Source: Nitrospira sp.
GTDB lineage: Bacteria > Nitrospirota > Nitrospiria > Nitrospirales > Nitrospiraceae
Direction of reading: 5' to 3'
Assembly (NCBI GenBank): GCA_035761895.1
Contig: DASTQE010000298.1
Coordinates: forward strand, 1,110 to 65,109
DNA length: 64,000 bases
Program-made: the position numbers and the translations under genes
Shown here: positions 48,773 through 64,000 of the stretch, in pieces
Position numbering within the stretch: position 1 is the first letter of the stretch
Layout of the letters: every line of letters begins with the position of its first letter
The notes under the pieces: model-generated
Databases searched by the model: none
What the model was told of the DNA's origin: nothing
The model's input: only the letters and a program-made list of their open reading frames with translations

Positions 48773-49011
48773 GCAGACACGTGGGTGCAGGGTGCGTGGA
48801 ACAGAAATGTGCCGACCCGGTCGCTGTCACGAGAGTATGGCGCGTGATTGTAGCACAGGGCTTCGGCGAGACTCATGAGCACGCCGCTCGTTGCTCCATG
48901 TCACGACAGACACGTACAATCCACACGAGGTTCTGCGCATAGAATTGCAAATCACGTGACGCGTTTCTTCAGGTGTGAGAGTATCCCTTACGTCGAGCGA
49001 ATGGCTGAACG

Positions 49012-49308
49012 ATGACTGATGCGAGTGGTCCCACCGCCGTTCGAGCCAGGATCTCCGTTTCAGGACGAGTACAAGGCGTCGGCTATCGGGCATTCGCCAT
49101 GCGCGCCGCGACTGAGCGCGGGCTCGTGGGCGGCGTGAAAAACTGTGAAGATGGCCGGGTCGAGTTGGAGGCCGAAGGTTCCCAGGATCACATCACATCG
49201 CTGATCGAGGCGCTGAAGATCGGCCCGCCGGCTTCGCGGGTGACCGATGTTCGCGTGGAATGGCTGCCGGCGACGGGTCGGCAGACGAACTTTGCAGTGT
49301 GGTATTAG
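49012..49308 (+). CDS. acyP: Acylphosphatase
   Basis: [30 protein letters not shown]. Confidence 0.93.
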
Positions 49309-49328
49309 CGGGCAATTCTGAGGTCGGA

Positions 49329-50285
49329 ATGGCGGGCAGACAGGACGATTTCTCAGACCACGATGAAGCGCGGAGGCACTCGTCGGGCCATGACGAGGAG
49401 GATGGAGCCGACCTTGAGCAGGCTTCCGATGACGAGAAATCGCGCAGCCGGTCAGAAGGTCTGGATACTCTCAAGAGCTATCTGCGGGAGATTCGCCGGT
49501 CGACGCTGTTGACCTTCAAGCAGGAGCAACAACTGGGCAAGCGGGTCATGGCCGGCGACGAGCAGGCCCGCCAGCAGATGATCGAGTCCAATCTGCGTCT
49601 GGTAATCAGCATCGGCAAGCGGTACATTCACCGCGGATTTCCGTTTTCCGATATCGTCGAAGAAGGCAACCTGGGACTGATCAAGGCCGTCGAAAAATTC
49701 AACTACAAGCGGGGCTTTCGGTTTAGCACCTATGCCTCCTGGTGGATTCGTCAGTATATCGAGCGGGCCATTATTAATCAGGGCAAGCTCGTCCGTCTCC
49801 CGGTGCACGTCGTCGAGCGGTTGAACCGCTACCTCAACAAGGTCGAGGCGCTCGTCCAGGAACTGGGGCGGGAGCCGTCCGCCGAGGAAATCGCTAAGAA
49901 AATGAAAACGACGGAAGAGGAGGTTCTGGATCTCAAGCAGGTTGTGCGCACCACCTGTTCGCTGGACAGCCCGATCAACGATCGTGCCGACACGTTCCTT
50001 CGCGACGTCATTGAGGATCCGATGGGCGTCTCGCCTGCGGATACTGCCGAAGGAGTGATGCGACGGGCCGAAATGATGACCTGGGTCAAAGAGTTGCCTG
50101 AGAAAGAGCAAACTGTTATTGTGTCGCGGTTTGGCCTCGACGGGAGCGAAGCGCGAACGCTCGAGGAGATTGGACGCGATATGGGCTTGACCCGTGAACG
50201 CGTCCGCCAGATAGAAATGGCCGCCTTGAGCCGTCTTCGCCACACCATTGAGCGGAAGACGCTGACACAATCGGATTTGCTCTGA
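49329..50285 (+). CDS. RNA polymerase sigma-70 factor, group 2 (RpoS-like)
   Basis: [51 protein letters not shown]...[10 protein letters not shown]; lacks region 1.1. Confidence 0.9.
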
Positions 50286-50289
50286 GCCA

Positions 50290-50814
50290 ATGAGCGCTGC
50301 CGAGTATCGATCCCTCATTCGTGAAGTCCCCGATTTTCCCAAGCCCGGCATCCTGTTCTACGACATCACGACTCTTCTGAAAGACCCCAAGGCCTTCGCG
50401 GCGATTGCCGACGAGCTCACGGCCTATTATGGAGGGCAGCGGGTGGCCAAGGTGGTGGGTATCGAATCACGCGGCTTCATCTATGGTGGAATTCTCGCCC
50501 AACGGCTCAATGCGGGCTTCGTGCCGGTCCGGAAGCCGGGAAAGCTGCCTGCCGATTGCTTTGAAGTCAAATATAGCCTCGAATACGGCTCGAACACGCT
50601 CGCCATCCATCGCGACGCGATCGGAATGGGAGAACGCGTGCTTATCGTCGACGACCTGCTTGCCACCGGAGGCACCGCCGCCGCCACCGTCTCGCTCGTC
50701 AGGCAGCTGGGCGGCGAGATCGTCGGGCTCGAGTTCCTGGTCGAGCTCAAAGGACTAAACGGGCGTGAGAAACTCGTGGGCTACCCTGTGCATTCGACCA
50801 TCATCTATCCCTAG
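50290..50814 (+). CDS. apt: Adenine phosphoribosyltransferase
   Basis: [42 protein letters not shown]. Confidence 0.96.
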
Positions 50815-50842
50815 GGGGCCCCAGGCCTCCTCCTACAACCCC

Positions 50843-50872
50843 TTGTCAAACTCCGACGAGCCGTGTTATAGA
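50843..50872 (+). promoter_or_regulatory. Putative sigma70 promoter of dksA-like gene
   Basis: TTGTCA-N18-TATAGA with TG extended -10. Confidence 0.55.
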
Positions 50873-50922
50873 TGCCGAACTTTTTTTGCCGTCCGGCGTT
50901 TACCCAAGGAGAGGACAACGCG

Positions 50923-51480
50923 ATGGCGACGAAAACACCGCCGAAGAAGAAGCCGATGAACAAAAGCAAAGTTTCAAACAAGTCGGTAACAAAAGCCAGA
51001 CCGGTGGCGGCTGCGGTGATCGAAAAGCCGGTCATCATGGCCGTGTCGCCGCTGGCCGCAAAACCCAAGGAGTCCGCAAAAGAACGTGAAGCGCGAGAGC
51101 GGCGCCGCGAAGCGCTGCACCACATGCTGCTGGGCAAGCGTCAGGAGATCCTTAAGGAGATTGAAGGCAGCCTGGGACAGTCCTTGACCGAAGATCAGCA
51201 GCGTCGGCTCGAATCGGCCCGCGACGTCGGTGACCAGGCGCTCATGGATCTGGACCGTGAGTTGGGCATCTCGCTTATGGAAATGCGCAATCGGCGGCGA
51301 CAAGCGATCGATGAGGCGTTGACCAGACTTCATGAAGGGACGTACGGGATCTGCGCCGAGTGCGGCGTCGAGATCAGCGAGCGGCGTTTGGAGGCCGTGC
51401 CATTTGCGAAGCTCTGCGTCGAGTGTCAAGCCAGAGAGGAACTGCTGGAAAAAATCGAGAAGGAAGAAGAGCGCGACTAG
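50923..51480 (+). CDS. dksA: DksA/TraR C4 zinc-finger transcription factor
   Basis: AAGGAGAGG RBS; coiled-coil tip DVGDQA; GTYGICAECG..I..RRLEAVPFAKLCVEC. Confidence 0.85.
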   Translation: MATKTPPKKKPMNKSKVSNKSVTKARPVAAAVIEKPVIMAVSPLAAKPKESAKEREARERRREALHHMLLGKRQEILKEIEGSLGQSLTEDQQRRLESARDVGDQALMDLDRELGISLMEMRNRRRQAIDEALTRLHEGTYGICAECGVEISERRLEAVPFAKLCVECQAREELLEKIEKEEERD

Positions 51481-51572
51481 TTTCCACTCGCCCTCCGCAT
51501 GATACCCGCATGCTCGGTCAACCCGCCGGTGCTCTCCCACGTTCTTGACGCGGTAACCACGAGGCTCGTGCG

Positions 51573-52274
51573 ATGGTCCAACCCGGAAGCTCCACTCGCG
51601 CGGTCGTCCTCGCGAGTGGGGGACTTGATTCGACCGTGACAGCCGCCCTGGCGCGAGAGGCCGGCCATGAGCTGTTGTGGTTGACCGTCGACTATGGACA
51701 GCGACACGCGATCGAGGTCGAACGGGCTCGTCAGGTGGCCGCCGCCATGGGAGCGGCCAAGCACACTGTGCTCGTGGTAAATCTGCGCGCCCTCGCCGGG
51801 TCTGCCTTGACCGGCGACCTCCCGGTGCCGAAGGACCGCCACAGTGCAGAGCGGAGCCGCGGCATACCGGTCACCTATGTCCCCGGCCGGAACCTTGTCT
51901 TGCTCTCTCTGGCTGCGGCTCATGCCGAAGCGGAGGGCGCATCTCTCATTTATTTTGGCGCGAACGTGCTGGACTATTCCGGATATCCGGATTGCCGTCC
52001 TGAATTCATCCGTGCGTTCGAAGCGGCCGTCAATGCCGGAACGAAGGCCGCTGCGGAAGGAGCCACGCTGCGCGTCCGTGCCCCTTTACTCGAAATGACG
52101 AAGGCCGACATTATTCGGACGGGGATCCGGCTCGGTGTGCCCTTGCACCTCACCCATAGCTGTTACGATCCGGTGGGGGACCTCGCGTGCGGACGGTGCG
52201 ATAGCTGTCTGATCAGACGGGAAGGATTCTCAAGAGCCGGGGTTGAGGATCCCACCAGGTATGCAGTAACCTGA
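51573..52274 (+). CDS. queC: 7-cyano-7-deazaguanine synthase
   Basis: SGGLDST, YGQRH..E, TYVPGRN, YSGYPDCRPEF, SCY...CGRCDSC..R. Confidence 0.96.
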   Translation: MVQPGSSTRAVVLASGGLDSTVTAALAREAGHELLWLTVDYGQRHAIEVERARQVAAAMGAAKHTVLVVNLRALAGSALTGDLPVPKDRHSAERSRGIPVTYVPGRNLVLLSLAAAHAEAEGASLIYFGANVLDYSGYPDCRPEFIRAFEAAVNAGTKAAAEGATLRVRAPLLEMTKADIIRTGIRLGVPLHLTHSCYDPVGDLACGRCDSCLIRREGFSRAGVEDPTRYAVT

Positions 52275-52341
52275 TCGGAAGTCCCTTCGTTTGCGGCAGT
52301 GTTCCGGTGCCGAACCTCGGCGTCGACAGGCGGTGTGGAGC

Positions 52342-52506
52342 ATGAGCGTCTCTCCGGAAGAGTTTTTCATGTATCTCACGATCGGGTTGATCGTCATCGC
52401 GCCGATCGGCGCACGCCTCTATCGCCGCATGACGCTTCAGCGAACACAGAGGATGCTGCGCGAGCAGTTTGAGGCGCACGCCGGACGGCAAGAGGAGCGG
52501 CGTTGA
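52342..52506 (+). CDS. 54-aa single-pass membrane protein
   Basis: GGAG upstream; one hydrophobic helix then basic tail; stop overlaps the next start (TTGA). Confidence 0.55.
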   Translation: MSVSPEEFFMYLTIGLIVIAPIGARLYRRMTLQRTQRMLREQFEAHAGRQEERR

Positions 52507-52901
52507 TTCTGCAGTCGTCGACCGGGCCACTCTCGATGCTGGCGATGACCGTCGCTTTTACGGTGATGGCCGCGTGCGACTCTTCCCCCCCAAAGCCTCC
52601 TGTCGGTGATGCTGCAGTTCCGGCTGAATTCCAGGCCGGCGAGGCGAAGTTCAACGCTCATTGCTCCGCTTGCCATGGGCCTCGGGCCACCGGCACGAAG
52701 CAAGGCCCTCCGCTCGTGCATAAGATTTATGAGCCCAACCACCACGGTGACGCGGCCTTTCTGCGCGCTGCGGAATTCGGCGTCAAAGCCCATCACTGGG
52801 AGTTCGGCAACATGCCGAAGGTCGATGGGGTCTCTTCTGCGGACGTCGAGCAGATCACCGGCTACGTTCGCTGGCTGCAACGGCAGGCCGGCATCTCCTA
52901 A
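52503..52901 (+). CDS. Monoheme cytochrome c lipoprotein (start 52503 or 52536)
   Basis: Lipobox MAAC; CSACH; GPPLVHKIYEPNHHGD...GVKAHHWEFGNMP. Confidence 0.88.
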   Translation: MILQSSTGPLSMLAMTVAFTVMAACDSSPPKPPVGDAAVPAEFQAGEAKFNAHCSACHGPRATGTKQGPPLVHKIYEPNHHGDAAFLRAAEFGVKAHHWEFGNMPKVDGVSSADVEQITGYVRWLQRQAGIS

Positions 52902-52949
52902 CCTGCCGGCGCCTCCCTCCTTTCTGATTCCTGTTCTCCAGCCTTCGGT

Positions 52950-52979
52950 TTGACATTGTTCGCAAGCGCTTCGTAAGGT
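52950..52979 (+). promoter_or_regulatory. Putative sigma70 promoter of SPFH gene
   Basis: TTGACA-N18-TAAGGT. Confidence 0.5.
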
Positions 52980-53068
52980 AAACCTACGAGGTCACGCGGC
53001 TATTGGCCAGAGCGATATTTCGACGCCGTCCTAACTATCGATCGACACACACGTAGAGGAGGGGGCTT

Positions 53069-53902
53069 ATGAGGAGACCAATCGGAGGCATTCTCAGCAT
53101 CGTGCTCGGCGGGTTGCTGCTGGGGCTGTCGGCATGTGCGGCGATCGATGCGGGACACGAAGGGGTGCTCGTTGAGCAACCGTTCTTCTTTGGACACGGC
53201 GGCGTTGATCCGGTTCCGTCAAAGACGGGGCGCGTGTGGCTGGCGCCGACGACACATGTGGTGGATGTGGATGTCCGGCCGGTCCAATATTCGGAACACT
53301 TCGACATCATTTCGGCAGAGAACGCCCCGGTGTCCTTCGACGCATTCTTGATCGCGAACGTGGTGGAAGGCCGTTCGCCGGAATTGATCTCGCGCTACGG
53401 TCCGCATTGGTATCAAAACAACGTGAAGGAGGCCTTCCGGACGTTCGTGCGCGAAGAAGTGCAGAAGTATCCGCTGTTCCAGTTGACCACGGATCCGACA
53501 ACCCGCACCAAATTGCAGGAAGCCATTGCCAGAGAAGTGCAGGTCAAATTGATCGAGAAACAAAATATCCCCGTGCGGCTGAACCGCGTTGTCGTCGGCA
53601 GCATCCTGCCGCCCAAGGGCGTGGTCGAGCAGACGACGCAAACCATCGTGCAGGAACAACGCAAAATCACCATGGTTGAGTTTCAGAAGGCGGAGGAAGC
53701 TCGCGAAAAGGCTGAAAAGCAACGCGGCATTGCCGATCGGGCCTACCGCGAATCGTTGGGCCTGACGGCCCCGGAGTTTGTGGATTTGCGGCGGATCGAA
53801 GTGCAGAAGGAAATTGTCCAACACTCGCCGTCGGCGCTGACGGTGATCATGGGGCTGGAGCGAATCGGAATTAATCTGCCGCCTTTTGGGGCGGAGAAAT
53901 AG
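53069..53902 (+). CDS. SPFH/band-7 (prohibitin-like) lipoprotein
   Basis: AGGAGG RBS; lipobox LSAC; IDAGHEGVLVE; EAEKAREKAEKQR coiled region. Confidence 0.82.
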   Translation: MRRPIGGILSIVLGGLLLGLSACAAIDAGHEGVLVEQPFFFGHGGVDPVPSKTGRVWLAPTTHVVDVDVRPVQYSEHFDIISAENAPVSFDAFLIANVVEGRSPELISRYGPHWYQNNVKEAFRTFVREEVQKYPLFQLTTDPTTRTKLQEAIAREVQVKLIEKQNIPVRLNRVVVGSILPPKGVVEQTTQTIVQEQRKITMVEFQKAEEAREKAEKQRGIADRAYRESLGLTAPEFVDLRRIEVQKEIVQHSPSALTVIMGLERIGINLPPFGAEK

Positions 53903-53911
53903 GACATGACC

Positions 53912-53942
53912 AAGGCGGAGCCGTACAACACGGCTCCGCCTT
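53912..53942 (+). terminator. Perfect hairpin after SPFH gene (no U-tract)
   Basis: AAGGCGGAGCCGT-ACAAC-ACGGCTCCGCCTT, 13 bp. Confidence 0.55.
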
Positions 53943-54187
53943 CCTGCGACTGAGCCTTTGTCATGCGATCTCACGTGCCCACTCGAATCGACTTGCGCTC
54001 CACATCTGTGCGATCCGATGCCCGCGGCCCGCTGCGCTGCCTTGACCTGGCCCACGGTTGAGGTTTAGGTGCGACGGCCACTGTCCTGCCACTAGGCATA
54101 TCCCTGAATGCGCTTCCGACAGAACTATGGAAAGTTCCGGGCGGTGGCAATCGGACAGCAGCCTATGCTGGTTGAAGGAGGCGTGAG

Positions 54188-54442
54188 ATGAAGCGACGAT
54201 CGTCGGAAGATTCGTGGGATGCGCTCAACATCGTGACCGACGCGGCGGAACGTTATCTCAACCGCTCGCCACGATTCAAGCGTCTCGAAGCAGAACGCCA
54301 GGCCTTGCTGGATGCCATCCGGCGAGCTCAGCTCATGCTGTCGGTGAAACGATTGCCGGTGGGTTCCGAATCCGCGTCGGGGGCCTTGACCGTTCCTCGA
54401 AGTCGAGGACACCATCGGCGTAGGAGCGCGCACTCGAGGTGA
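54188..54442 (+). CDS. Small hypothetical protein
   Basis: AAGGAGG RBS; helical-hairpin-like sequence (ALNIVTDAAERYL...LEAERQALLDAIRRAQ). Confidence 0.55.
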   Translation: MKRRSSEDSWDALNIVTDAAERYLNRSPRFKRLEAERQALLDAIRRAQLMLSVKRLPVGSESASGALTVPRSRGHHRRRSAHSR

Positions 54443-54463
54443 CTGCGCGCGAAAGACGGTCGG

Positions 54464-55150
54464 TTATAACAAGGATGTTGGAAAGGCGCCACCGGCGCTG
54501 ACAGCATATCGTTTTGACCAGATCAACCGTCGCTCCTTGAACAGGCTTGCTTCGTGTTGAAATCCGACCTTTTCAATCACATGCCGTGACGGCGAATTGG
54601 ATCCGAAGACGGTCACGTAAGCCTGCCGGGCCCCTGTCACGTCCCGTGCGTCGTGCAAGAGGCGGCAGAGCGCTTGGTAGTACAGCCCGCGGCCTCTTGC
54701 AAGGGGATGCGTGAAGTGGTCAAACAGGACGGCGGTTTCAGGAGGGGGAAAATAGGCCTGGTTTACCCATCCGTCTTCACCCCGCGTCTGTCGCTCAATA
54801 AGCCATGCGTAATGGAGAAGGCGGCCGCCTGCGACGAACGTGTAGAGGTGAAAGCCCTGCGCTCTTCGCTCGACCGCCATCCGCCGGTACACGTCGGGCG
54901 TCTGTTGTTCTTTGGCCGAACGTTCGTAATACCTGAGATCGTCGAGGCAGTTGCGTCGGAAGATGGTGGGGCGCGGAAGGGGTGGCGCCTCTTCGAGAGG
55001 GTAACGGTAGATCCGCAGTTCGCGGCAATACCAGAGACGGCTTCTGCCGGCGTTCAAGAGGCGAGAAGGCCACGAGGACGGGGAAAGGAGTGAAACAACC
55101 GATGAGTCGTGTGAGCTGGCGGGAGAAGAGATGTCCGCATGGCGGATCAT
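54464..55150 (-). CDS. GNAT-family acetyltransferase-like protein (start uncertain)
   Basis: LFDHFTHPLARGRGLY acetyl-CoA motif A; N.PSRHVIEKVGF. Confidence 0.72.
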   Translation of the reverse strand: MIRHADISSPASSHDSSVVSLLSPSSWPSRLLNAGRSRLWYCRELRIYRYPLEEAPPLPRPTIFRRNCLDDLRYYERSAKEQQTPDVYRRMAVERRAQGFHLYTFVAGGRLLHYAWLIERQTRGEDGWVNQAYFPPPETAVLFDHFTHPLARGRGLYYQALCRLLHDARDVTGARQAYVTVFGSNSPSRHVIEKVGFQHEASLFKERRLIWSKRYAVSAGGAFPTSLL

Positions 55151-55161
55151 GGGGCGACCTC

Positions 55162-56127
55162 CTAGGCGGCATGCCCGGGAGGGCGACTGCGGGTGGCCTT
55201 CTCGTTAGCCTGACCGGCGGCCTTGCGAGGGTCGGCCACTTGCGCGTCGGGAGCCGGAACAATGCGCTCGCCGAGCCGGTTCGCATACACCTGAGTGAAC
55301 TCGGCCCCATATAATAGGATCTGTGCCGAATAATAGACCCACAGGAGAATGAGAACCAACGATCCCGCTGCGCCGTACGCCGAGGCGACGTTGCTTTTGC
55401 CAAGATAGAGGCCGAGCGCGTATTTTCCGATCGTGAATAAGGTCGCTGTAAGCAGCGCGCCAACCCAGACGTCCCTCCAAGCCACTTTGGCGTCCGGCAG
55501 CACCTTAAAGATCAATGCAAATAAGCCAGTGACGACCACGAAGGACAGCGCGAAGTTGAAGAGATGCAGCAGGGCTTCGGGCAACGGCAGCAACCCGCTG
55601 AACCAATTCCCGAACGCGGCCAAGGCGCTGCTGAGAAGCAAGGACACCAGCAGGAGAAAGCCGGTGCCAAGCACGGCGACAAAAGAAAGAAAACGGTCTT
55701 TGATGAAGCCCCACACGCCTCGACCTTCCTTCGGTTCCACGCCCCACACGGTGTTCAGCGCATCCTGCAGTTGTCCGAAGACCCCCGACGCGCCGAATAG
55801 CAGCGTCACGACCGCGAGGACGGTTGCCACGAGCCCCGTGGACGGCTGATCGGCCCGTCGAATCATGTCCTTGATGGCCGCTGCGCTCTGGTCTCCGACC
55901 ATCGTGGCGATGTGCGACAGGATCGCTGATTGGGCCGCTTCCTGTCCGAGGACCAGGCCGATCAGGGCGATGACGACGACGAGGAAGGGCACCAGAGAAA
56001 ACACCGTGTAATAGGCCAAGGCGGCGCCCAAACGTGGCGCACGATCGTGGCTCCAGTCGGCAGCGGCCTCCTTGATCAGATGCCACAAGGTGCGCGGCCC
56101 GAATGCGTCGGACCAATAGTTTCCCAT
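55162..56127 (-). CDS. YihY/virulence factor BrkB family membrane protein
   Basis: AALAYYTVFSLVP, GASGVFGQLQDALNTVW, YGAAGSLVLILLWVYYSAQILLYGAE. Confidence 0.92.
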   Translation of the reverse strand: MGNYWSDAFGPRTLWHLIKEAAADWSHDRAPRLGAALAYYTVFSLVPFLVVVIALIGLVLGQEAAQSAILSHIATMVGDQSAAAIKDMIRRADQPSTGLVATVLAVVTLLFGASGVFGQLQDALNTVWGVEPKEGRGVWGFIKDRFLSFVAVLGTGFLLLVSLLLSSALAAFGNWFSGLLPLPEALLHLFNFALSFVVVTGLFALIFKVLPDAKVAWRDVWVGALLTATLFTIGKYALGLYLGKSNVASAYGAAGSLVLILLWVYYSAQILLYGAEFTQVYANRLGERIVPAPDAQVADPRKAAGQANEKATRSRPPGHAA

Positions 56128-56187
56128 TTGTGACTCCCCGGTTGGCGTTTCACTTAATCGCGAAAAGAACTGCAAAAGTCGCGCAAC

Positions 56188-56203
56188 TGCAAGAGATGCG
56201 CCG
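56188..56203 (-). promoter_or_regulatory. Possible sigma54 promoter for yihY-like gene
   Basis: Minus strand CGGCGC-ATCTC-TTGCA (GG-N10-GC), about 60 nt upstream of ATG 56127. Confidence 0.4.
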
Positions 56204-56379
56204 ATATGGATTATGGCCGAAATCTTCGATCCATCTTGTCCTGGGAGCCAGGGCCATGGGACAGATTGTCCCGCAGATCTAGCACTCCTCACGCCCGGAT
56301 CCTTAGCAAACCCCGAGGCGAGCTTGATTTTGTGGATAGTTGAGGCGAGAATGGAAAAATTTTCGAGCGGAGCGGATGG

Positions 56380-58734
56380 ATGCGTGGTCACAACCATCAC
56401 ATCACAGAGGCCGCCGCATATCTCGCTGCGGTCATAGATTCCTCTCACGACGCGATCATCACCAAAAATCTGTCCGGGATCATCCAGACGTGGAACAAAT
56501 CCGCCGAGCGCATGTTCGGGTATTCCGCGGAAGAAGCCGTCAACCAACCTATCTTCTTGATTATTCCCCCTGACCTCCATGCCGAAGAGGCGTCCATACT
56601 TGCCCGTCTCCGCAGCGGCGAGCTCATCGAGACCTACGAGACCCTGCGTCGCCGCAAAGACGGCCGGCTCATTGATGTCGCCTTGACAGTCTCGCCGGTG
56701 CGGGACGCAAATGGGACGCTCATCGCCGCCTCAAAAATCATCCGTGACATCACCGAGCGCAAGCAAGCCAACCGGACGATTGCGCAAGTGCAAGGCTTGC
56801 TGTCCTTGATCGTTGCGTCGAGTGACGACGCGATCCTGAGCAAAGATCTCAACGGCACCATCACGAGCTGGAACAGGGGGGCGGAGCGCATGTTCGGGTA
56901 TACGGCGGAAGAAATGATTGGTTCGTCCATCCTCCGCATCATTCCACCCGACCGTCATTCCGAAGAGGCCGCCATCCTGTCTAAGCTTCGCAGAGGCGAG
57001 CGCATCGATCATTATGAAACCGTGCGGCGCAAGAAGGACGGCCGCCTGTTTGACATCTCCATCACCGTGTCTCCGCTGACCGATGAAGGAGGCAACGTCG
57101 TCGGCGCCTCAAAGATCGCGCGCGACATCTCCGAACAGAAACGCGCCCAGCGGGCCCTGCATGAGAGCGAAGAACGGTGGCGAGTGACGCTGGAAAGTAT
57201 TGGGGATGCCGTCGTCGCCACCGATGCTTCTGCGGAGGTGACCTTCGTTAATCAGGTCGCTGCTGGAATCATGGGACGGCCCATTGAAGATATCCAGGGT
57301 CGGCCGTTGGCCGACGTGTTCAAGATCGTGAACGAAGGGACGCGTCTTGCCGTCGAGAGTCCGGTGGATCGGGTGATCCGAGAAGGACTCGTGGTCGGAC
57401 TCGCGAACCATACCGTCGTCATCAGACCCGACGGTACCGAAGTACCGATTGATGATAGTGCGGCTCCAATCCGGGATCGGGACGGGCGCCTGCTCGGCGT
57501 GGTGCTCGTCTTCCGGGACATCTCGGAGCACAAGAAGACCGAGGTCCAACTGCAGCGCTGGAATGCGGAACTCGAGGTTCGCGTGAGGGAACGCACCGCC
57601 GAGCTCGTCAAGTCGCAGGAGCGACTGCGGGCGTTGGCCTCGCAACTGAATATGACGGAGCAGAGGGAACGCCGCCGGTTGGCCGGCGACCTGCACGACT
57701 ACCTGGCGCAACTGCTGGCGTTGATCCGGATCAAATTGGGCCAGGTGCTGCAGCGACTGCCCGACCATCTGTCGGACGGACGTGCCTCGCTCACGGCCAT
57801 TGATGACCTCCTGCAGGAGTGTCTGCAGTACGCACGCACACTGATGGCACAGTTGAGCCCGTCCGTACTACAAGATTTGGGACTCATACCCGCCATCCAT
57901 TGGCTCGCGGAACAGATGGCTCAACAGGGACTCAAGGTGGAGGTGAATGTCCTGACGGAGGAGACGCCGTCGTTCAGCGAGCACCAGGCGGATTTGCTCT
58001 TCCAAGCCTTGCGGGAGTTACTGACGAACGTCGTCAAGCACGCAGGCGTGCCCACGGCGTCCGTGACGATTCACAAACAGGATCGGGACACCTGGTTGCT
58101 CACGGTACGCGATCACGGCCTTGGATTCGACATCAATGCGGTGCACTATCAGCCGTCGGGGGAGCATTTTGGACTGTTCAGTATCCAGGAGCGCATGGAA
58201 GCCATGTCGGGATGGTGCAGGATCGATTCGGCCGTCGGGCAGGGCACCAGCGTCGAATTGGGGTTGGCAGCCATGCCATCCGATGCGAAACCAAGAGCGC
58301 ATGTACTGAGAACGGCCCGTCGGATGCCTGAAGTCATGCGGCTGACGGAACCCTCGCGGTGGCGGGTGTTACTCGTCGATGACCACGCCATGGTGCGTCA
58401 AGGGCTCCGGAGCATCCTCGAGACGTATCCCGACCTGGAAGTCGTGGCCGAGGCCTCCGACGGTGAAAGGGCGGTGGAGTCAGCGATCAGCCACAAACCG
58501 GACGTCGTTGTCATGGACATCAATCTGCCCCGGCTGAACGGGATTGACGCCACCAGGCGCATCAAGAATGAGGCGCCGGATACGGTGGTCATCGGCTTGT
58601 CGGTGCATTACTCGTCACAGACCTACGCTGCGGTCATCGAGGCGGGTGCCTCTGCCGTGCTAAGCAAGGAACAGGCGACTGAAGACTTGTATCGAACCAT
58701 CACGCGGTTCCTGAAGGACCCGGTCGAGCAATGA
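56380..58734 (+). CDS. Hybrid sensor kinase: 3x PAS, HisKA_3, HATPase, NarL-type receiver
   Basis: Two near-duplicate PAS-PAC (DAI.SK.L.G.I.SWN.GAERMFGY), third PAS, ERRRLAGDLHD, ELLTNVVKHA, DHGLGF, GTSV, DDHAMVRQG...MDINLP. Confidence 0.92.
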   Translation: MRGHNHHITEAAAYLAAVIDSSHDAIITKNLSGIIQTWNKSAERMFGYSAEEAVNQPIFLIIPPDLHAEEASILARLRSGELIETYETLRRRKDGRLIDVALTVSPVRDANGTLIAASKIIRDITERKQANRTIAQVQGLLSLIVASSDDAILSKDLNGTITSWNRGAERMFGYTAEEMIGSSILRIIPPDRHSEEAAILSKLRRGERIDHYETVRRKKDGRLFDISITVSPLTDEGGNVVGASKIARDISEQKRAQRALHESEERWRVTLESIGDAVVATDASAEVTFVNQVAAGIMGRPIEDIQGRPLADVFKIVNEGTRLAVESPVDRVIREGLVVGLANHTVVIRPDGTEVPIDDSAAPIRDRDGRLLGVVLVFRDISEHKKTEVQLQRWNAELEVRVRERTAELVKSQERLRALASQLNMTEQRERRRLAGDLHDYLAQLLALIRIKLGQVLQRLPDHLSDGRASLTAIDDLLQECLQYARTLMAQLSPSVLQDLGLIPAIHWLAEQMAQQGLKVEVNVLTEETPSFSEHQADLLFQALRELLTNVVKHAGVPTASVTIHKQDRDTWLLTVRDHGLGFDINAVHYQPSGEHFGLFSIQERMEAMSGWCRIDSAVGQGTSVELGLAAMPSDAKPRAHVLRTARRMPEVMRLTEPSRWRVLLVDDHAMVRQGLRSILETYPDLEVVAEASDGERAVESAISHKPDVVVMDINLPRLNGIDATRRIKNEAPDTVVIGLSVHYSSQTYAAVIEAGASAVLSKEQATEDLYRTITRFLKDPVEQ

Positions 58735-58972
58735 GCCGCTGCACCTCCCCATCAACCTGAGCCGGGCCGCAGGTCGTACCGCCCAGTGGCACTCCGTAGT
58801 CCTGCCGCGGTTCCTTCCTACATATGCATTCAGACAGCGGCGCGATCTCCTCCCAGGCAAGTGCCTCTTTTTGCATACGCCTGACAGCAACTTTGGCCAA
58901 GGCGCGGCCTGAAACCAGACCCTCGATAGCAGGAAAAACCAACGGTTAGCTTCCGGCTGCACCGGCGCCGAA

Positions 58973-58988
58973 CGGTATTGCTTTTGCG
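58973..58988 (+). promoter_or_regulatory. Possible sigma54 promoter upstream of lipoprotein-HExxH genes
   Basis: CGGTAT-TGCTT-TTGCG (GG-N10-GC). Confidence 0.35.
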
Positions 58989-59003
58989 AGAGTCTGGCGC
59001 AGG

Positions 59004-59678
59004 ATGAAGATTAAAACAGTCTATGCTCAAGCCTGCCGCAGAGCGACTGGAGTGCTATTTCTCATCGCGGTGAGTGTCCTGCAGTACGGGTGTCTCGCTG
59101 CGGCGTGGGTCGCGGCGGTTGGTGCCGACTCCATGAGAACCGGCGATGTGCGCTTTCATCCGTTCGAAGCATCCTGGGTCGCGACGGAACATCCGTTGGC
59201 AAGCTCTGACCGTCCTTCGTTGACGAGCGTGGCGCTGATGCCGCTCGATGGTGACGAGGCGATGGGTGCCAGACTGACCAAACTTCTGATGAGTGAAACC
59301 GCCTTGCGCGTCGTGACGCCGGTCAGGCGCGATGGATGGCGTCCAGTGGCAGCGGCGGATCGGGAGCGTGCCGTGCTCGCGCGCAGCCTCTCACGTGAAC
59401 TCGCCGTGGATGCCGTCCTGTATGGACATGTCGTGGGTGCGGCTGCGCGGTCGAGCGAATGGGGGTGGACAGCGGAAGAACCCCGTCGATTATTTCTTTA
59501 CATGATCGATCGCGACGGACGCTTGTTGTGGAAGGATGAACTGCCGTTTGTCATCGTGACTGGGACAAAACCACCGCATGAGGAGTCGGTCCAAATGTCC
59601 CTGACACGACACTTCATGGACCATGTTCGTGACCTTGGCCTTGACGACGTCGGCTATTTGCCCTCCAAGTCGTCCTAG
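59004..59678 (+). CDS. Hypothetical exported/lipoprotein, alpha/beta (CsgG/LpoB-like) fold suspected
   Basis: Hydrophobic leader ending QYGC; VALMPL...AVDAVLYGHV...MIDRDGRLLWKD pattern. Confidence 0.65.
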   Translation: MKIKTVYAQACRRATGVLFLIAVSVLQYGCLAAAWVAAVGADSMRTGDVRFHPFEASWVATEHPLASSDRPSLTSVALMPLDGDEAMGARLTKLLMSETALRVVTPVRRDGWRPVAAADRERAVLARSLSRELAVDAVLYGHVVGAAARSSEWGWTAEEPRRLFLYMIDRDGRLLWKDELPFVIVTGTKPPHEESVQMSLTRHFMDHVRDLGLDDVGYLPSKSS

Positions 59679-59743
59679 CCACCATCTCCTTGCGGCCTTT
59701 GCCGCGCTCCGGTAGAGTTCGCCGCTCCATCATTGTAAGGAAG

Positions 59744-61309
59744 ATGATGTCCTTGCTCGACGCGGCGGCAATCATCCGCTTGCAGATCGAATTCTGCCAA
59801 TCCATGCGAACCCTCCTTATCGGGCTCTGCCGCGATATCGAGCGCCACTATGCGGAACCGGCCGCACGGCTCGATCTGCCCGTGGACTTTTTCCGGTTTC
59901 TCGCGCACACCTTCGATCGCACTGCCTTCTCGAATTGGAAGGTGGTCGGGTGGATCGAAGCGCTCAATGACCTCGTCTATTTTCTTGACCTGCTCATGCA
60001 GGTCCGTCAGGAGCATGATCAGCGAGGCTTTGCCGAGCAACTTTTTGCGGAATGTGAGGAGAACTTTTTCGAGAACAGTTATCTTGATGAATTATTCCCG
60101 CGCGGGCAGGCGCAGGCCCGGGGACTGGCAGGACGCCTGCAGCGGCTGTGCATGAGGCTGGCCCGCGAGGTCACGCAGGAATCGCTTTTCTTCGATCCAC
60201 GACAGGCGCTCCAATGGATGAAGCGGCAGGGCCGGCGTTCGTGGGCCGTATCCGGCCGCTTGGAGGCGTCTTTTGAACGGGCGGAACAGGCCTTTACCAT
60301 TCCGATCGGAATCGATGGGAGCGTGCTGATGGCGCCGGCTTCTGTCCGACGGGCCGTCGGCCGACCATCGCGGTGTCTGACCTTTGTCCTCAATGCACAG
60401 GAGATGGCGCTCCGGGTAGGCCGTTCATTTCCTCTCTGCACATGGGGAGGAACTCTCGTGCAATGGCACTGGCCGCGGCGGGAACCCGTTCACACAGCCG
60501 CAGCGCCCTGCGGACCACCGAGCATCGGCCCCACCCTGCGCTACGGGAGCAACCGCGAGCCGAAAGCGCTTTCGGTCACCGACGCGCAACAGGTCGCCCG
60601 CATCAGCCGAGCTTGGGAGACCCTCCGACGAGCGTGGCCCCAAGGGCATGACTTGTTGGAGCTGCTCACTTCCCGCGTGGTGCCGCTCCGCGCGTCCGGT
60701 GTGGTCAGCTTCAGTTACCGGCACCGGCCCGGCCTCTCGTTCATCAACTGCTTCGACCGCGACAACCTGGATCTCATGGACGACTTGATTCATGAGAACA
60801 GTCATCACCATTTGAATCTGCTCTTGCGCAAGCACGTCCTGTATCAGCATGACCGCAATCAACAAATCTTCTACTCCCCCTGGCGGAGAAGCCTGAGGCC
60901 CCTTCGAGGGATTCTACATGCCACATTTACGTTCACGATGGGCGCGCTGCTCTTCGCCCGGCTGTCCACGTGGGCCGAGACCGCACAGGGGAAAGGACAG
61001 TGGCGCGAAGGAGGACTCAGCGCAGGGCACCTTGCGCGCGCGCGTTTCCGCTGTCTGGAAGAGATCGAGTCGGTTCGCTACTCCCTTCAGGACCTCGAGT
61101 ATGCCGGGCGGCATCTCAAGTGGATGACGGCCTCCGGCGCGCGTCTGGTCCAACAGCTCGAAGACGCCATCGTGAAGGCGGAGCAGCAGATCTCCCGTTA
61201 CCGCAAAGTGGTTCTCGCTTCTCCATTCGGCCCCTCGTTGCGCAGGCATGTCGCCGAACTTCGGCACGCGCGTGAAACCTATGGGCCCATAAACCTCAAG
61301 CAAGTGTGA
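59744..61309 (+). CDS. HExxH-motif putative peptide-modification enzyme (alphaKG-HExxH type)
   Basis: AAGGA RBS; LIHENSHHHL, YSPWRRSLRPLRGILHA motifs. Confidence 0.82.
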   Translation: MMSLLDAAAIIRLQIEFCQSMRTLLIGLCRDIERHYAEPAARLDLPVDFFRFLAHTFDRTAFSNWKVVGWIEALNDLVYFLDLLMQVRQEHDQRGFAEQLFAECEENFFENSYLDELFPRGQAQARGLAGRLQRLCMRLAREVTQESLFFDPRQALQWMKRQGRRSWAVSGRLEASFERAEQAFTIPIGIDGSVLMAPASVRRAVGRPSRCLTFVLNAQEMALRVGRSFPLCTWGGTLVQWHWPRREPVHTAAAPCGPPSIGPTLRYGSNREPKALSVTDAQQVARISRAWETLRRAWPQGHDLLELLTSRVVPLRASGVVSFSYRHRPGLSFINCFDRDNLDLMDDLIHENSHHHLNLLLRKHVLYQHDRNQQIFYSPWRRSLRPLRGILHATFTFTMGALLFARLSTWAETAQGKGQWREGGLSAGHLARARFRCLEEIESVRYSLQDLEYAGRHLKWMTASGARLVQQLEDAIVKAEQQISRYRKVVLASPFGPSLRRHVAELRHARETYGPINLKQV

Positions 61310-61361
61310 GCACAGAGCCTACCTGCATGTTCCCCTAGCTCCGCCCTGGCCGGCCGGCCGC

Positions 61362-61367
61362 TACACT
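61362..61367 (+). promoter_or_regulatory. -10 box 6 nt before ATG 61374 (leaderless candidate; no clear -35)
   Basis: TACACT-CGTGAG-ATG; no SD. Confidence 0.35.
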
Positions 61368-61373
61368 CGTGAG

Positions 61374-62963
61374 ATGGCAAAGGGTGGGCTAAAGATCATG
61401 GCGGGGGTGGGACTGCTGGTGCTCCTGCTCATCACTGGCGCGGCAGTTCTCATTGACGAGCCGTTGCGCTCGTACATCGAGCAAAAGATGAACCGCAGCC
61501 TGAGGGGCTACACGGTGCGCATCGGCTCGCTTGATTTTCATCCCATCGGATTTTCGGTGGATCTGAAGGATGTGCGCCTTCTGCGCATCGACAAACCCGA
61601 TCCTCCGGTGGCGACGCTTGCACGCTGGTCGGCGAGCCTCCATTGGAAGGCACTCCTGTCCGGGCGTCTGGTGAACGACCAGTACATCGAACGGCCCAGG
61701 TTCCACATCACCCGGTCACTGGCAAAGCAGGAAGCCGGTGATGACACGCCGGTCAAAGATCGCGGTTGGCAGGATGCCGTGGAAAGCGTCTACCCGTTCA
61801 AGATCAACCAGATCAGGATCGACGACGCTGAACTGACGTACATCGATGAGGCGAAGTCTGAACGTCCGCTGCGAGCTGGCCACATCAATATCTATGCATC
61901 CAACATCCGAAATGTGCAGTCCGCCGATCAGGACTATCCCTCGGAATTCTTTCTGGAAGGCACGCTGTTCGAATCTGGAAAAATCCGCCTCGATGGACAC
62001 GCGGATTTTCTGGCGGAGCCATATGTGGCCGTCAAGGCTGATCTCCTGTTGGACGGCGTGTCGTTGGGGTCATTGATGCCAGTGACGGCTCGCTACAACG
62101 TTCAACTCAGTGGTGGCACCATGTCGGCGGAAGGCTCGGTGGAATATGCTCCCTCGGTGAAAGTGGTGAACTTGAAGCGTCTCGCCATCGACGGGCTGCA
62201 CGCCGACTACGTGCATGCCGCGCACACTCGACGGGCCGAAGCCGAAAGGGCGAAGGCGACGGTCAGCACCGCGCACTCAATTAATGCGAACGAAGAAACC
62301 CTGGTGCGCGTGGATCAGATCCACATTGACGGTGGCGAACTGGGGTTCGTCAATCAGGCCGCGAAACCTGAGTACCGGGTCTATCTGGCCGATGCGGACG
62401 TGACACTGGAACACTATAGCAACCAGTTTCGGGATGGGCCGGCGTCGATGCTCATTCGGGGAAAATTCATGGGAACCGGTGACACGCAGATCTCTGGCGT
62501 CGTGCGTCCCCCACAGGACTCGCCCGATCTTGAGCTGAAAGTTAAAATCGCCGGCACGCAGATCAGGTCGATGAACAACCTGTTGCGGGCGCACGGCAAT
62601 TTCGATGTGGTGGGAGGCGTCTTCTCCTGTTATTCGGAGATCAGACTCGATGACGGTTCGATTCGAGGTTATGTGAAGCCGTTGATCAGGAAGTTGGATG
62701 TCTACGATCCGGGACAGGACCGGGATAAAAACGCGCTGGACAAGGTACGGGAGGGGGCGATCGAAGATCTCTCCTCCCTATTGGAAAATGTCCCGCGTGA
62801 GGAAGTCGCCACCAAAGCGGATGTGTCGGGACACGTGGCCCGGCCACGGACCGAGAAAGTCCAGATCGTCGTTGGTCTCATCGTAAATGCCTTCTTCAAG
62901 GCCATCCTGCCGGGGTTCGAGCGGGAATTCGGAGCAACACACACCAAAGCCGGACGTGGCTGA
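61374..62963 (+). CDS. DUF748 / AsmA-like bridge protein
   Basis: N-terminal TM, amphipathic beta-strand repeats, GSIRGYVKPL, IVVGLIVNAFFKAILPGF C-terminus. Confidence 0.78.
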   Translation: MAKGGLKIMAGVGLLVLLLITGAAVLIDEPLRSYIEQKMNRSLRGYTVRIGSLDFHPIGFSVDLKDVRLLRIDKPDPPVATLARWSASLHWKALLSGRLVNDQYIERPRFHITRSLAKQEAGDDTPVKDRGWQDAVESVYPFKINQIRIDDAELTYIDEAKSERPLRAGHINIYASNIRNVQSADQDYPSEFFLEGTLFESGKIRLDGHADFLAEPYVAVKADLLLDGVSLGSLMPVTARYNVQLSGGTMSAEGSVEYAPSVKVVNLKRLAIDGLHADYVHAAHTRRAEAERAKATVSTAHSINANEETLVRVDQIHIDGGELGFVNQAAKPEYRVYLADADVTLEHYSNQFRDGPASMLIRGKFMGTGDTQISGVVRPPQDSPDLELKVKIAGTQIRSMNNLLRAHGNFDVVGGVFSCYSEIRLDDGSIRGYVKPLIRKLDVYDPGQDRDKNALDKVREGAIEDLSSLLENVPREEVATKADVSGHVARPRTEKVQIVVGLIVNAFFKAILPGFEREFGATHTKAGRG

Positions 62964-63157
62964 TGACACCAGGTGGAGATTAGTAAATCAAGGACAGGAT
63001 GTTCAAAAAACAGATGAGACCGAAGTCCGCCGTGGTTGCTCGTAAGTGAGGGCGACGTTTGTGTAGTCACAGCACTACGTCGAGGAGGCCGATCGAGAAC
63101 AACCGCGCCGGACGAGAGAATCGGCTGGTGCGGCAGATGTGTCATGGATTACCGGGC

Positions 63158-64000
63158 TCAAGGCTCCACCGTCACATCTACGAAGACCGGCATGCTGTCC
63201 GCCCCTTTCTTGTCTGTCACTCTCAGCCTGAAGCGGAAGAGTTTAGGCTCTGAGACGAACGGCGCGAGGAACGAGGCCTTCGGCATATTGAGATCCAAGA
63301 GCGGCACTTTGGCTCCGCGGACCTGGCTCCAAGTATAAAAGAGCGCTTCGCCTTCGGGGTCCCGGCTGCCCAACCCGTTGAGCTCAACCTTGGCGCCCGA
63401 TTTCACGGTGCGATCGGCCCCCGCCACGGCCACCGGCGGCTCGTTGGGCTCATCGCCGACGGCGACGTGCACGTCCAGCGACGCCTCTTTCCCGCGGTTC
63501 TTCACGGTCAGCACGGTTTTCCCATTTCCGACGATCTTGAGCATGCCGTCCGGCAACACCTCGATCACCTTGTCGTTGGAGGAATGGTAGCTGGTCCCGC
63601 TGGACGGAGCCGTGAGAGGCCTGGACACACCGTCCGCGAAATCACCGACGACGGGAAGCTCGAAGATTTTGCCCAGGACGTCCACCTGGCCATACGTGGC
63701 CAATTGACCCTCTCGTCCGAGCAGCAACGGTTTGTCCGTTTCGAAATCGATGTGCTGAAGCTCGGCTTTTGGTTCGGCATTGACCACGATCTCATCGAAG
63801 ACGGTTCTCGTTCCGAGCCGGCCTCGCGAGATGTCCGCCACCGCGAGAAGTCGCATAGGCCCGATGGCCTCCGGTGGAACCTTGAGCGGACCACCAAAGG
63901 CGGGATCCATGTCTCCTGTTGAGACGAGCACCGGCAAGGAGACAACGGAGCCGCCCACGACGCTGTCTTTTTGAAGGAACTTGTCCACCGAGACCTTGGC
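63158..64000 (-). CDS. Ig-like/PKD-domain surface protein, 5' end beyond the window
   Basis: Frame open to the window end; BIG2-like (YHSSNDKVIEV.PDG...GNGKTVLTV), PKD (NEPPVAVAG...LNG..S.DPEG..L.YTWSQ...FRLRVTD). Confidence 0.78.
   Translation of the reverse strand, partial: AKVSVDKFLQKDSVVGGSVVSLPVLVSTGDMDPAFGGPLKVPPEAIGPMRLLAVADISRGRLGTRTVFDEIVVNAEPKAELQHIDFETDKPLLLGREGQLATYGQVDVLGKIFELPVVGDFADGVSRPLTAPSSGTSYHSSNDKVIEVLPDGMLKIVGNGKTVLTVKNRGKEASLDVHVAVGDEPNEPPVAVAGADRTVKSGAKVELNGLGSRDPEGEALFYTWSQVRGAKVPLLDLNMPKASFLAPFVSEPKLFRFRLRVTDKKGADSMPVFVDVTVEP

Follow-up and report, generated by a model that had tools for sequence, protein, structure and literature searches.

A candidate alpha-ketoglutarate-HExxH oxygenase encoded outside any visible peptide-modification cluster in Nitrospira

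What does an enzyme from a peptide-tailoring family do when its gene stands in no recognizable peptide-tailoring cluster? The question is raised by one gene in a 64,000-nucleotide stretch of Nitrospira sp. DNA (contig DASTQE010000298.1 of assembly GCA_035761895.1; hereafter the window), which encodes a 521-aa protein, P0001, with an HExxH motif. The initial annotation had read P0001 as an orphan member of the alpha-ketoglutarate-HExxH (aKG-HExxH) family, whose characterised members are all Fe/2-oxoglutarate (2OG) peptide beta-hydroxylases or oxidative cleavers (PMC12636437, PMC13060819), and had seen no locus for a peptide that is ribosomally synthesized and then post-translationally modified (RiPP) around it. 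With a probability of roughly 0.55, we consider P0001 to be a cytoplasmic Fe(II)/2OG-dependent oxygenase of this family that acts in trans on a conserved peptide or protein encoded elsewhere. The gene and the motifs that bear on its family assignment are:

59744..61309, + strand: aKG-HExxH family gene, 521 aa, start at 59744 or 59747; orthologs mostly start MSLLD
60605..60985, + strand: catalytic core matched by the NCBIfam model TIGR04267, residues 288-414
60791..60805, + strand: HENSH, the HExxH motif, residues 350-354, on helix 341-363 of the AlphaFold2 model
60875..60919, + strand: SPWRRSLRPLRGILH, residues 378-392, with SPWRxxLRP and the third histidine (H392), aligned residue by residue with SPWREDLRPPSGLLH of ChlH

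The open frame at 59744-61309 predicts a soluble-type protein, in which no signal peptide, transmembrane helix or hydrophobic segment was found. Its start codon is likely the ATG at 59744 or 59747, because most orthologs begin with MSLLD and a Shine-Dalgarno-like AAGGAAG lies just 5' of it. A longer, TTG-started frame runs from 59690 and overlaps a conserved promoter-like element; on account of the ortholog starts, the Shine-Dalgarno-like sequence and this overlap it is read as non-coding. An in-frame N-terminal extension of the gene was thus rejected, the apparent extension being the conserved DNA element. HENSH, PWRxxxRP and the third histidine, all pointed out in the initial annotation, were confirmed by hidden Markov model, motif alignment and fold; the two motifs are 23 residues apart by our count, not 22 as had been given. 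A motif search of P0001 found no CxxxCxxC of the radical SAM type, and a six-frame search of positions 49000-64000 returned a single CxxxCxxC, in a shadow frame of the SPFH gene.

P0001 scores 71.5 bits against TIGR04267 (aKG-HExxH-type peptide beta-hydroxylase; cut-off 40), the match covering residues 288-414, and 74 bits in the genome-level search, while a Pfam search of the protein found neither a domain nor a peptidase family. Sequence comparison with ChlH from Chlorogloeopsis (PDB 8s5f) gives E=6e-10, or E=5e-12 with an ortholog profile, and the HExxH, SPWRxxLRP and GxLHAxF motifs of the two proteins all align residue for residue; the match to SjiH (PDB 22nu/22ob) is weaker (E=4e-5). Conservation was counted over 124 diverse relatives, each taken from a separate 50%-identity cluster. 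Thirteen positions are conserved in at least 97% of them, and all thirteen residues are present in P0001: S322, D347, H350, E351, H354, S378, P379, W380, R381, R385, H392, T396 and F397. N335, D346 and E440 (95-96%) and H355 (94%) are retained as well. The catalytic core is therefore intact, as all residues conserved in at least 94% of the 124 relatives occur in P0001. The TIGR04267 score, the motif set and the fold described below all agree with the family originally proposed, and P0001 is a genuine aKG-HExxH family member, not a chance motif match. The enzyme type itself is already known, since public annotation pipelines assign the family, and the NCBI names of orthologs already include "aKG-HExxH-type peptide beta-hydroxylase".

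An AlphaFold2 model of P0001 built on 22 orthologs has a mean predicted local distance difference test score (pLDDT) of 90.4 and a predicted template modelling score of 0.88. The first half of the model consists of helices (residues 7-161), a beta-rich portion (166-277), further helices (281-308) and a small sheet (311-335). The HExxH helix (341-363) opens the second half, followed by the helix that bears H392 (387-412) and a C-terminal helical bundle that extends to residue 513. When the model was compared with the PDB by Foldseek, as had been suggested at the outset, solved HExxH structures were the sole significant fold matches: SjiH (E=1e-9) and the HExxH domain of ChlB (E=2e-7 and weaker). 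These matches have a probability of 1.0 and TM-scores of 0.54-0.61 on target length, over 450-500 aligned columns. The root-mean-square deviations to ChlB-HExxH and SjiH are large (8-10 Å), and therefore the domain orientations differ between P0001 and these two structures. Every other PDB fold was matched at E of about 1 or worse, and no match was found in a viral structure library. The modelled fold of P0001 is the zincin-like aKG-HExxH fold of ChlH.

Around this core, P0001 has three further regions:

59744..60235, + strand: N-terminal all-helical region, residues 1-164, with VGW(I/V)ExxND, consensus KVVGWIEALNDLVYFLDLL
60236..60529, + strand: Nitrospiraceae-specific beta-rich insertion of ~100 aa, about residues 165-262
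60986..61306, + strand: C-terminal helical bundle, residues 415-521 (helices 414-513 in the AlphaFold2 model)

The closest relatives of P0001 outside Nitrospiraceae are ~400-aa Leptospiraceae proteins (loci L045-L061), with 36-47% identity in the core. Set against 36 of the nearest relatives of ~400 aa in a profile-profile comparison (hhalign), the ortholog alignment matches their positions 1-409 with its residues 6-523 (probability 100, E=5e-64). The alignment has a single large gap, at about residues 165-262, and direct alignment agrees. Segment 140-300 comprises 161 residues in Nitrospira, against 64 in the ~400-aa relatives; in two deep Nitrospiraceae genera it has 113-121 residues, the insertion being ~45 aa shorter there. 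The C-terminal bundle aligns with the Leptospiraceae subfamily up to the C-terminus. No PDB fold apart from the HExxH proteins matches the beta-rich insertion. The initial annotation had described about 300 aa of unrecognised N-terminal domain; this description holds for the lineage-specific insertion of ~100 aa and fails for the helical part, which is homologous to the Leptospiraceae proteins. The helical region is common to the nearest subfamily and, judged by the length of the Foldseek alignments, partly overlaps ChlH and SjiH. Its helices (7-161) are modelled at pLDDT above 90, and V68-G69-W70, E72, N75 and D76 are invariant among orthologs. This conservation fits a functional surface, with a putative role in substrate choice.

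In the 3.33 Mb of the genome from which the window comes, which is about 90% complete, there is just one TIGR04267 gene. Full-length, single-copy orthologs with 44-75% identity occur in 109 of 121 Nitrospiraceae genomes; among the high-quality genomes the count is 83 of 86, and 34 of 39 genera are represented. A phylum-wide sample places the gene in all 19 Nitrospiraceae genomes and in none of the 132 genomes from other Nitrospirota families. The HExxH gene is a vertically inherited, single-copy, near-universal and family-restricted core gene of Nitrospiraceae. In one genus, g8, it has been lost at the syntenic site with its neighbours kept (one g8 genome is 99% complete). A search of 1.84 billion representative proteins recovered 1111 relatives of P0001. 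Full-length matches are confined to about six clusters among these; in all the others (380-510 aa) the similarity is limited to residues ~280-480. When one genome per prokaryotic species was scanned, 437 loci with an HExxH relative were obtained, the best 17 from Leptospiraceae and the next 63 from Nitrospiraceae, including N. moscoviensis NSP M-1; the N. moscoviensis ortholog falls within 3460294-3472959 of NZ_CP011801.1. A full-length ortholog of 65% identity (P0069, WP_455371520.1) lies on a 2.9-kb contig filed under the cyanobacterium 'Petrachloros mirabilis'; because the gene is strictly restricted to Nitrospiraceae, this is probably a contaminating Nitrospira contig in that assembly.

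Is there a RiPP system nearby that was overlooked? Synteny was examined in the loci of 20 relatives with 8 kb flanks. The ancestral order begins with an NFACT/RqcH-like gene (- strand), a small Zn-ribbon gene (+), sometimes a lipoprotein gene (+) and the HExxH gene (+), and continues with genes for an exported PKD protein (-), an APC-type permease (-) and a ~1600-aa protein (+). The conserved blocks of the 20 relatives hold no radical SAM enzyme, multinuclear non-heme iron-dependent oxidase (MNIO), peptidase or exporter. The window flanks have no RiPP precursor with a maturase, peptidase or exporter. The absence of a radical SAM gene, precursor, peptidase and exporter reported at first for the window flanks thus held for the window and extends to the relatives, among which the ortholog comparison proposed earlier reveals a conserved non-RiPP block. 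The features around the gene in the window are:

59004..59678, + strand: lipoprotein-like gene of 224 aa with lipobox LQYGC; the HExxH gene follows after 65 nt
59690..59718, + strand: promoter-like element TTGCGG-N17-TAGAGT; the start codon follows about 25 nt downstream
61374..62963, + strand: DUF748/AsmA-like gene (Pfam DUF748), between the HExxH gene and its usual convergent neighbour
63158..64000, - strand: exported PKD-domain protein with a signal peptide, running off the window (370 aa in the contig)

The flanks are of a housekeeping type. About 11 kb (48773-59743) separate the NFACT gene (47315-48772) from the HExxH gene and hold genes for sigma-70, a phosphoribosyltransferase, DksA, QueC, SPFH, GNAT and YihY/BrkB proteins, a triple-PAS hybrid histidine kinase and the lipoprotein; the DUF748 and PKD genes lie on the other side. 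NFACT is close to the HExxH gene, within 8 kb upstream, in 14 of the 20 relatives, and the 11-kb separation is a lineage-specific rearrangement common to the window and its closest relative (L016). The lipoprotein gene has no Pfam or NCBIfam match and precedes the HExxH gene in only 5 of 21 loci. The most conserved neighbour is the PKD gene, beside or near the HExxH gene in 19 of the 20 relatives, with a junction of 12-118 bp where the two are adjacent and non-overlapping. The DUF748 gene stands at this junction in the window and its closest relative only. Fic/Doc-type toxin genes (HPFxDGNKR; L018:9581-9973, L019:9572-9964 and others, cluster c14) occupy the junction in other loci, as do other small cassettes in several Nitrospira genomes. 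It looks like an insertion hot spot, occupied in the window by the inserted DUF748 gene. Since the junction so often carries insertions in other genomes, the HExxH and PKD genes seem to be neighbours through inherited gene order and not through coupling. The PKD protein was also considered as a substrate and rejected: it is convergent, exported, often split off by insertions, and kept in g8 where the enzyme is gone.

In at least 14 of 21 Nitrospiraceae loci, belonging to many genera, the promoter-like element TTGCrG-N17-TAsAGT precedes the ortholog start by 25-45 nt; the window contains it only once, with 0.01 matches expected by chance. A consensus promoter scan missed it because its -35-like half agrees with the consensus at only 3 of 6 positions. 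We infer that the element is the HExxH gene's own promoter, from which the gene is apparently transcribed on its own. No conserved short open reading frame was seen upstream of the HExxH gene in five loci examined, and an Rfam search of the flanks gave no match.

A partner could also be encoded far from the gene, and the whole genome was searched for triceptide-type radical SAM enzymes and precursors. The genome has 23 radical SAM genes, none on the HExxH contig. Only two encode SPASM proteins: an anaerobic sulfatase maturase (TIGR03942, 488 bits) and a NirJ/AhbD-like enzyme. No triceptide-type maturase was found in the genome, FxsB/XyeB-type models scoring far below their cut-offs. A fused radical SAM-HExxH enzyme of the ChlB type was not found, there being no radical SAM or SPASM domain in or adjacent to P0001. 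No Nif11 or NHLP leader peptides were found in the genome, the NHLP search having been run without a positive control. This search found no cognate locus and upheld the orphan status of P0001. The sulfatase maturase (C25:3555-4919) has a C-terminal SEC-C-like CPCGSGRKFKRCH tail, and this in an aerobic nitrite oxidiser. A single MNIO gene (DUF692/MbnB-TglH family; C2:3-971) is truncated by its contig end and followed by a tRNA-dihydrouridine synthase (Dus) gene; it is on a different contig from the HExxH gene, shows no visible link to it, and the region upstream of it is unassembled.

Because the gene has no RiPP neighbourhood and the genome no triceptide-type maturase, action on a protein or a distantly encoded peptide is the best reading of P0001. 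The stand-alone enzyme envisaged by the initial annotation thus remains the preferred explanation, with RiPP partners absent both locally and genome-wide. The further steps of the initial annotation, a substrate-selecting N-terminal domain, a new route of post-translational modification and an O2/2OG sensor, are speculative. In the proposed enzyme the Fe(II) ligands would be H350 and H354, both on the HExxH helix, and H392, and the invariant SPWRxxLRP arginines R381 and R385 would bind 2OG, as the alignment with ChlH suggests. Expression would be monocistronic, from the conserved promoter-like element. If ChlH, BpmH, PflC/PosC and PesO are a guide, the most likely reaction is hydroxylation of a side chain in a peptide or protein; P0001 would hydroxylate a side-chain carbon of an unlinked, conserved peptide or protein and so have a housekeeping role in post-translational modification. 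The use of metal and cofactor, the hydroxylation reaction and the kind of substrate are all deduced in this scheme, in which the N-terminal helical region and the lineage-specific beta insertion may form the substrate-binding surface.

Two groups of genes matter for weighing this proposal, the Zn-ribbon family and the Leptospiraceae operon. The small Zn-ribbon gene has a core of ~71-75 aa, with a conserved CxxC...CxxC N-terminal part and a variable tail. Its pattern, M-x-C-x-x-C-x-G-L-M ... R-C-x-x-C-G-x-x-x-D, is matched by no Pfam or NCBIfam model, and the family may be an undescribed class of small regulators. The copies in the genome of the window, all outside the window itself and given by contig, are:

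C199:799-1068: Zn-ribbon copy
C273:23739-24053: Zn-ribbon copy
C74:253-426: Zn-ribbon copy
C135:9155-9433: Zn-ribbon copy
C105:6061-6231: Zn-ribbon copy
C196:2616-2822: Zn-ribbon copy
C311:10595-10918: Zn-ribbon copy

In Leptospiraceae, the ~400-aa HExxH protein is encoded by the last gene of a tight four-gene operon at 13 of 17 loci, after genes for an unknown 338-aa protein, a UbiA-family prenyltransferase and a membrane-anchored thioredoxin-like protein. This context is non-RiPP, and the operon appears to be an uncharacterised system. No ortholog of the 338-aa protein or of the UbiA gene was found in the Nitrospira genome, and a pathway in common with the Leptospiraceae operon was rejected on this ground. 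Further relatives, on short metagenomic contigs, have yet other gene contexts.

Could the Zn-ribbon proteins be the missing peptides? P0001 would then be a RiPP-type tailoring enzyme, and the dispersed Zn-ribbon proteins its precursors, with CxxC...CxxC as leader and a variable C-terminal core of 20-30 aa. A Zn-ribbon gene does lie directly upstream of the HExxH gene, on the same strand and at 100-1200 bp, in 15 of the 20 relatives; the conservation of the N-terminal part and the variability of the tails suit such a role, and the family is expanded to 6-19 copies per Nitrospiraceae genome compared with 1-5 in other Nitrospirota. The arrangement would resemble that of the prochlorosins, one promiscuous enzyme serving many dispersed precursors. 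Nevertheless, the genome of the window and its closest relative have an intact HExxH gene and no adjacent Zn-ribbon copy; they keep only divergent paralogs, the best of which scores 79 bits compared with 104-135 for syntenic orthologs. The family is found in 90 of 151 Nitrospirota, including families and the genus g8 in which there is no HExxH gene, and several paralogs adjoin sigma-54-type response-regulator/histidine-kinase pairs, which suggests a regulatory role. Moreover, no exporter or leader peptidase is linked, and the promoter-like element of the HExxH gene sits downstream of the Zn-ribbon gene. As an obligate, dedicated precursor the Zn-ribbon protein was rejected, because no copy adjoins the enzyme gene here or in the closest relative, the family has several copies per genome, and across Nitrospirota it also occurs without the enzyme; we regard a RiPP role of this kind as unlikely.

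A mainly hydrolytic enzyme, that is, a zincin-like metallopeptidase cleaving a cytoplasmic peptide or protein, would be in keeping with the zincin-related fold and with an HExxH that retains its glutamate. The related PflC can also act as a metal-dependent peptidase, hydrolysing truncated substrates with Zn, Co or Fe (PMC12636437), and Foldseek gives weak matches of about 80-110 columns to snake-venom metalloproteinases. These protease matches are non-significant (E >1), however, and there is no Pfam peptidase match; the 2OG-family-specific signature of SPWRxxLRP and third histidine is fully conserved, and the solved and assayed relatives are oxygenases, so that we judge this reading quite unlikely. 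The UbiA/thioredoxin operon that the Leptospiraceae sister genes terminate raises another question, namely whether the oxidised substrate might be a lipid, a polyprenyl-linked intermediate or a small metabolite. Fe/2OG enzymes are in general chemically versatile enough for this. Such a substrate is nonetheless improbable in Nitrospira, where the missing 338-aa protein and UbiA orthologs leave no visible common pathway, and every assayed family member acts on peptides (PMC12636437, PMC13060819). P0001 could also be an O2/2OG sensor that regulates its target by hydroxylation, a special case of the proposed in trans oxygenase. A general analogy with eukaryotic prolyl and asparaginyl hydroxylases, the inferred transcription unit of its own and the restriction to a family of aerobic nitrite oxidisers are compatible with a sensor; no adjacent regulatory partner is conserved, however, and this holds for the window's upstream PAS kinase too. 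Of all these readings we hold the sensor to be very unlikely.

Several points also weigh against the preferred reading, in trans oxygenation of a conserved peptide or protein. No co-varying partner gene or substrate was found. The gene is not essential, because genus g8 has lost it. To our knowledge, a protein substrate is unprecedented for the aKG-HExxH fold. With the genome about 90% complete, an unlinked partner could be in the missing part; with a Zn-ribbon gene directly upstream in 15 of 20 relatives, a cognate peptide could exist after all. The Leptospiraceae UbiA operon hints at possible non-peptide substrates, and by analogy with the peptidase activity of PflC (PMC12636437) hydrolysis by P0001 would be possible.

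Studied aKG-HExxH enzymes are RiPP-tailoring enzymes found by cluster mining, whereas the gene described here is near-universal, inherited and without a cluster. Its host family, which comprises nitrite oxidisers and comammox Nitrospira, is ecologically central. Should the substrate prove to be a cellular protein, an oxygenase fold that is newly discovered would extend from secondary metabolism to core physiology, as the first housekeeping, non-RiPP use of the aKG-HExxH fold, and O2-dependent protein modification would occur in organisms whose niche is defined by oxygen and nitrite. If it is a small unlinked peptide, the locus would mark a blind spot in neighbourhood-based RiPP mining. We put forward only tentatively, and at clearly less than even odds, the more general proposal that all nitrite oxidisers of the Nitrospira family use a housekeeping, non-RiPP, O2/2OG-dependent hydroxylase of a conserved protein or of the Zn-ribbon set, with a parallel system in Leptospiraceae. 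With the ortholog present in cultured strains, N. moscoviensis among them, the question is open to direct test. To judge from the literature that could be searched, several elements appear to be new: a lineage-wide Nitrospiraceae subfamily outside biosynthetic gene clusters, with a Leptospiraceae sister clade; the extended architecture with a lineage-specific insertion; the conserved promoter-like element; and the largely negative result for nearby or genomic RiPP partners. Literature searches on HEXXH in Nitrospira and on SjiH found nothing relevant.

We have compared P0001 with the known enzymes of its family. With ChlH, the HExxH domain of ChlB (PDB 8s5f; Morishita et al., Nat Chem 2024, cited by PMC12636437 and PMC13060819), P0001 shares the HExxH helix, SPWRxxLRP, the third histidine and the fold (TM-score 0.58-0.61 on target length), and the Fe(II)/2OG chemistry of the two is presumed to be alike. 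ChlH has a radical SAM cyclophane synthase as its fusion partner or encoded next to it, and its substrate is a pre-cyclised RiPP precursor. In contrast, P0001 is encoded by a core-genome gene with no radical SAM partner; it is ~150 aa longer than ChlH, with extended N-terminal helices, the ~100-aa beta insertion and a longer C-terminal bundle. In structure, P0001 is matched best by SjiH (452 aligned columns; its deposition title is 'Radical SAM core domain-containing protein'), which differs from both P0001 and ChlH in having Q at the third-histidine position of the alignment and has the lower sequence similarity. The Leptospiraceae ~400-aa proteins resemble P0001 in their full-length homology and non-RiPP context; they differ in lacking the ~100-aa insertion and in belonging to the UbiA/thioredoxin operon.

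BpmH, PflC/PosC and PesO are closest to P0001 in being stand-alone proteins of the same family (IPR026337/TIGR04267), and they either beta-hydroxylate Gln, Asn, Pro or Phe or cleave the backbone oxidatively (PMC12257519, PMC12636437, PMC13060819). They are patchily distributed and reside in biosynthetic gene clusters with a precursor and an MNIO, GNAT, peptidase or transporter. Such partners are missing around the Nitrospira gene, which is near-universal in one family. It is this core-genome, family-restricted, single-copy pattern, set against the cluster-embedded characterised members, that favours a physiological over a natural-product role for P0001.

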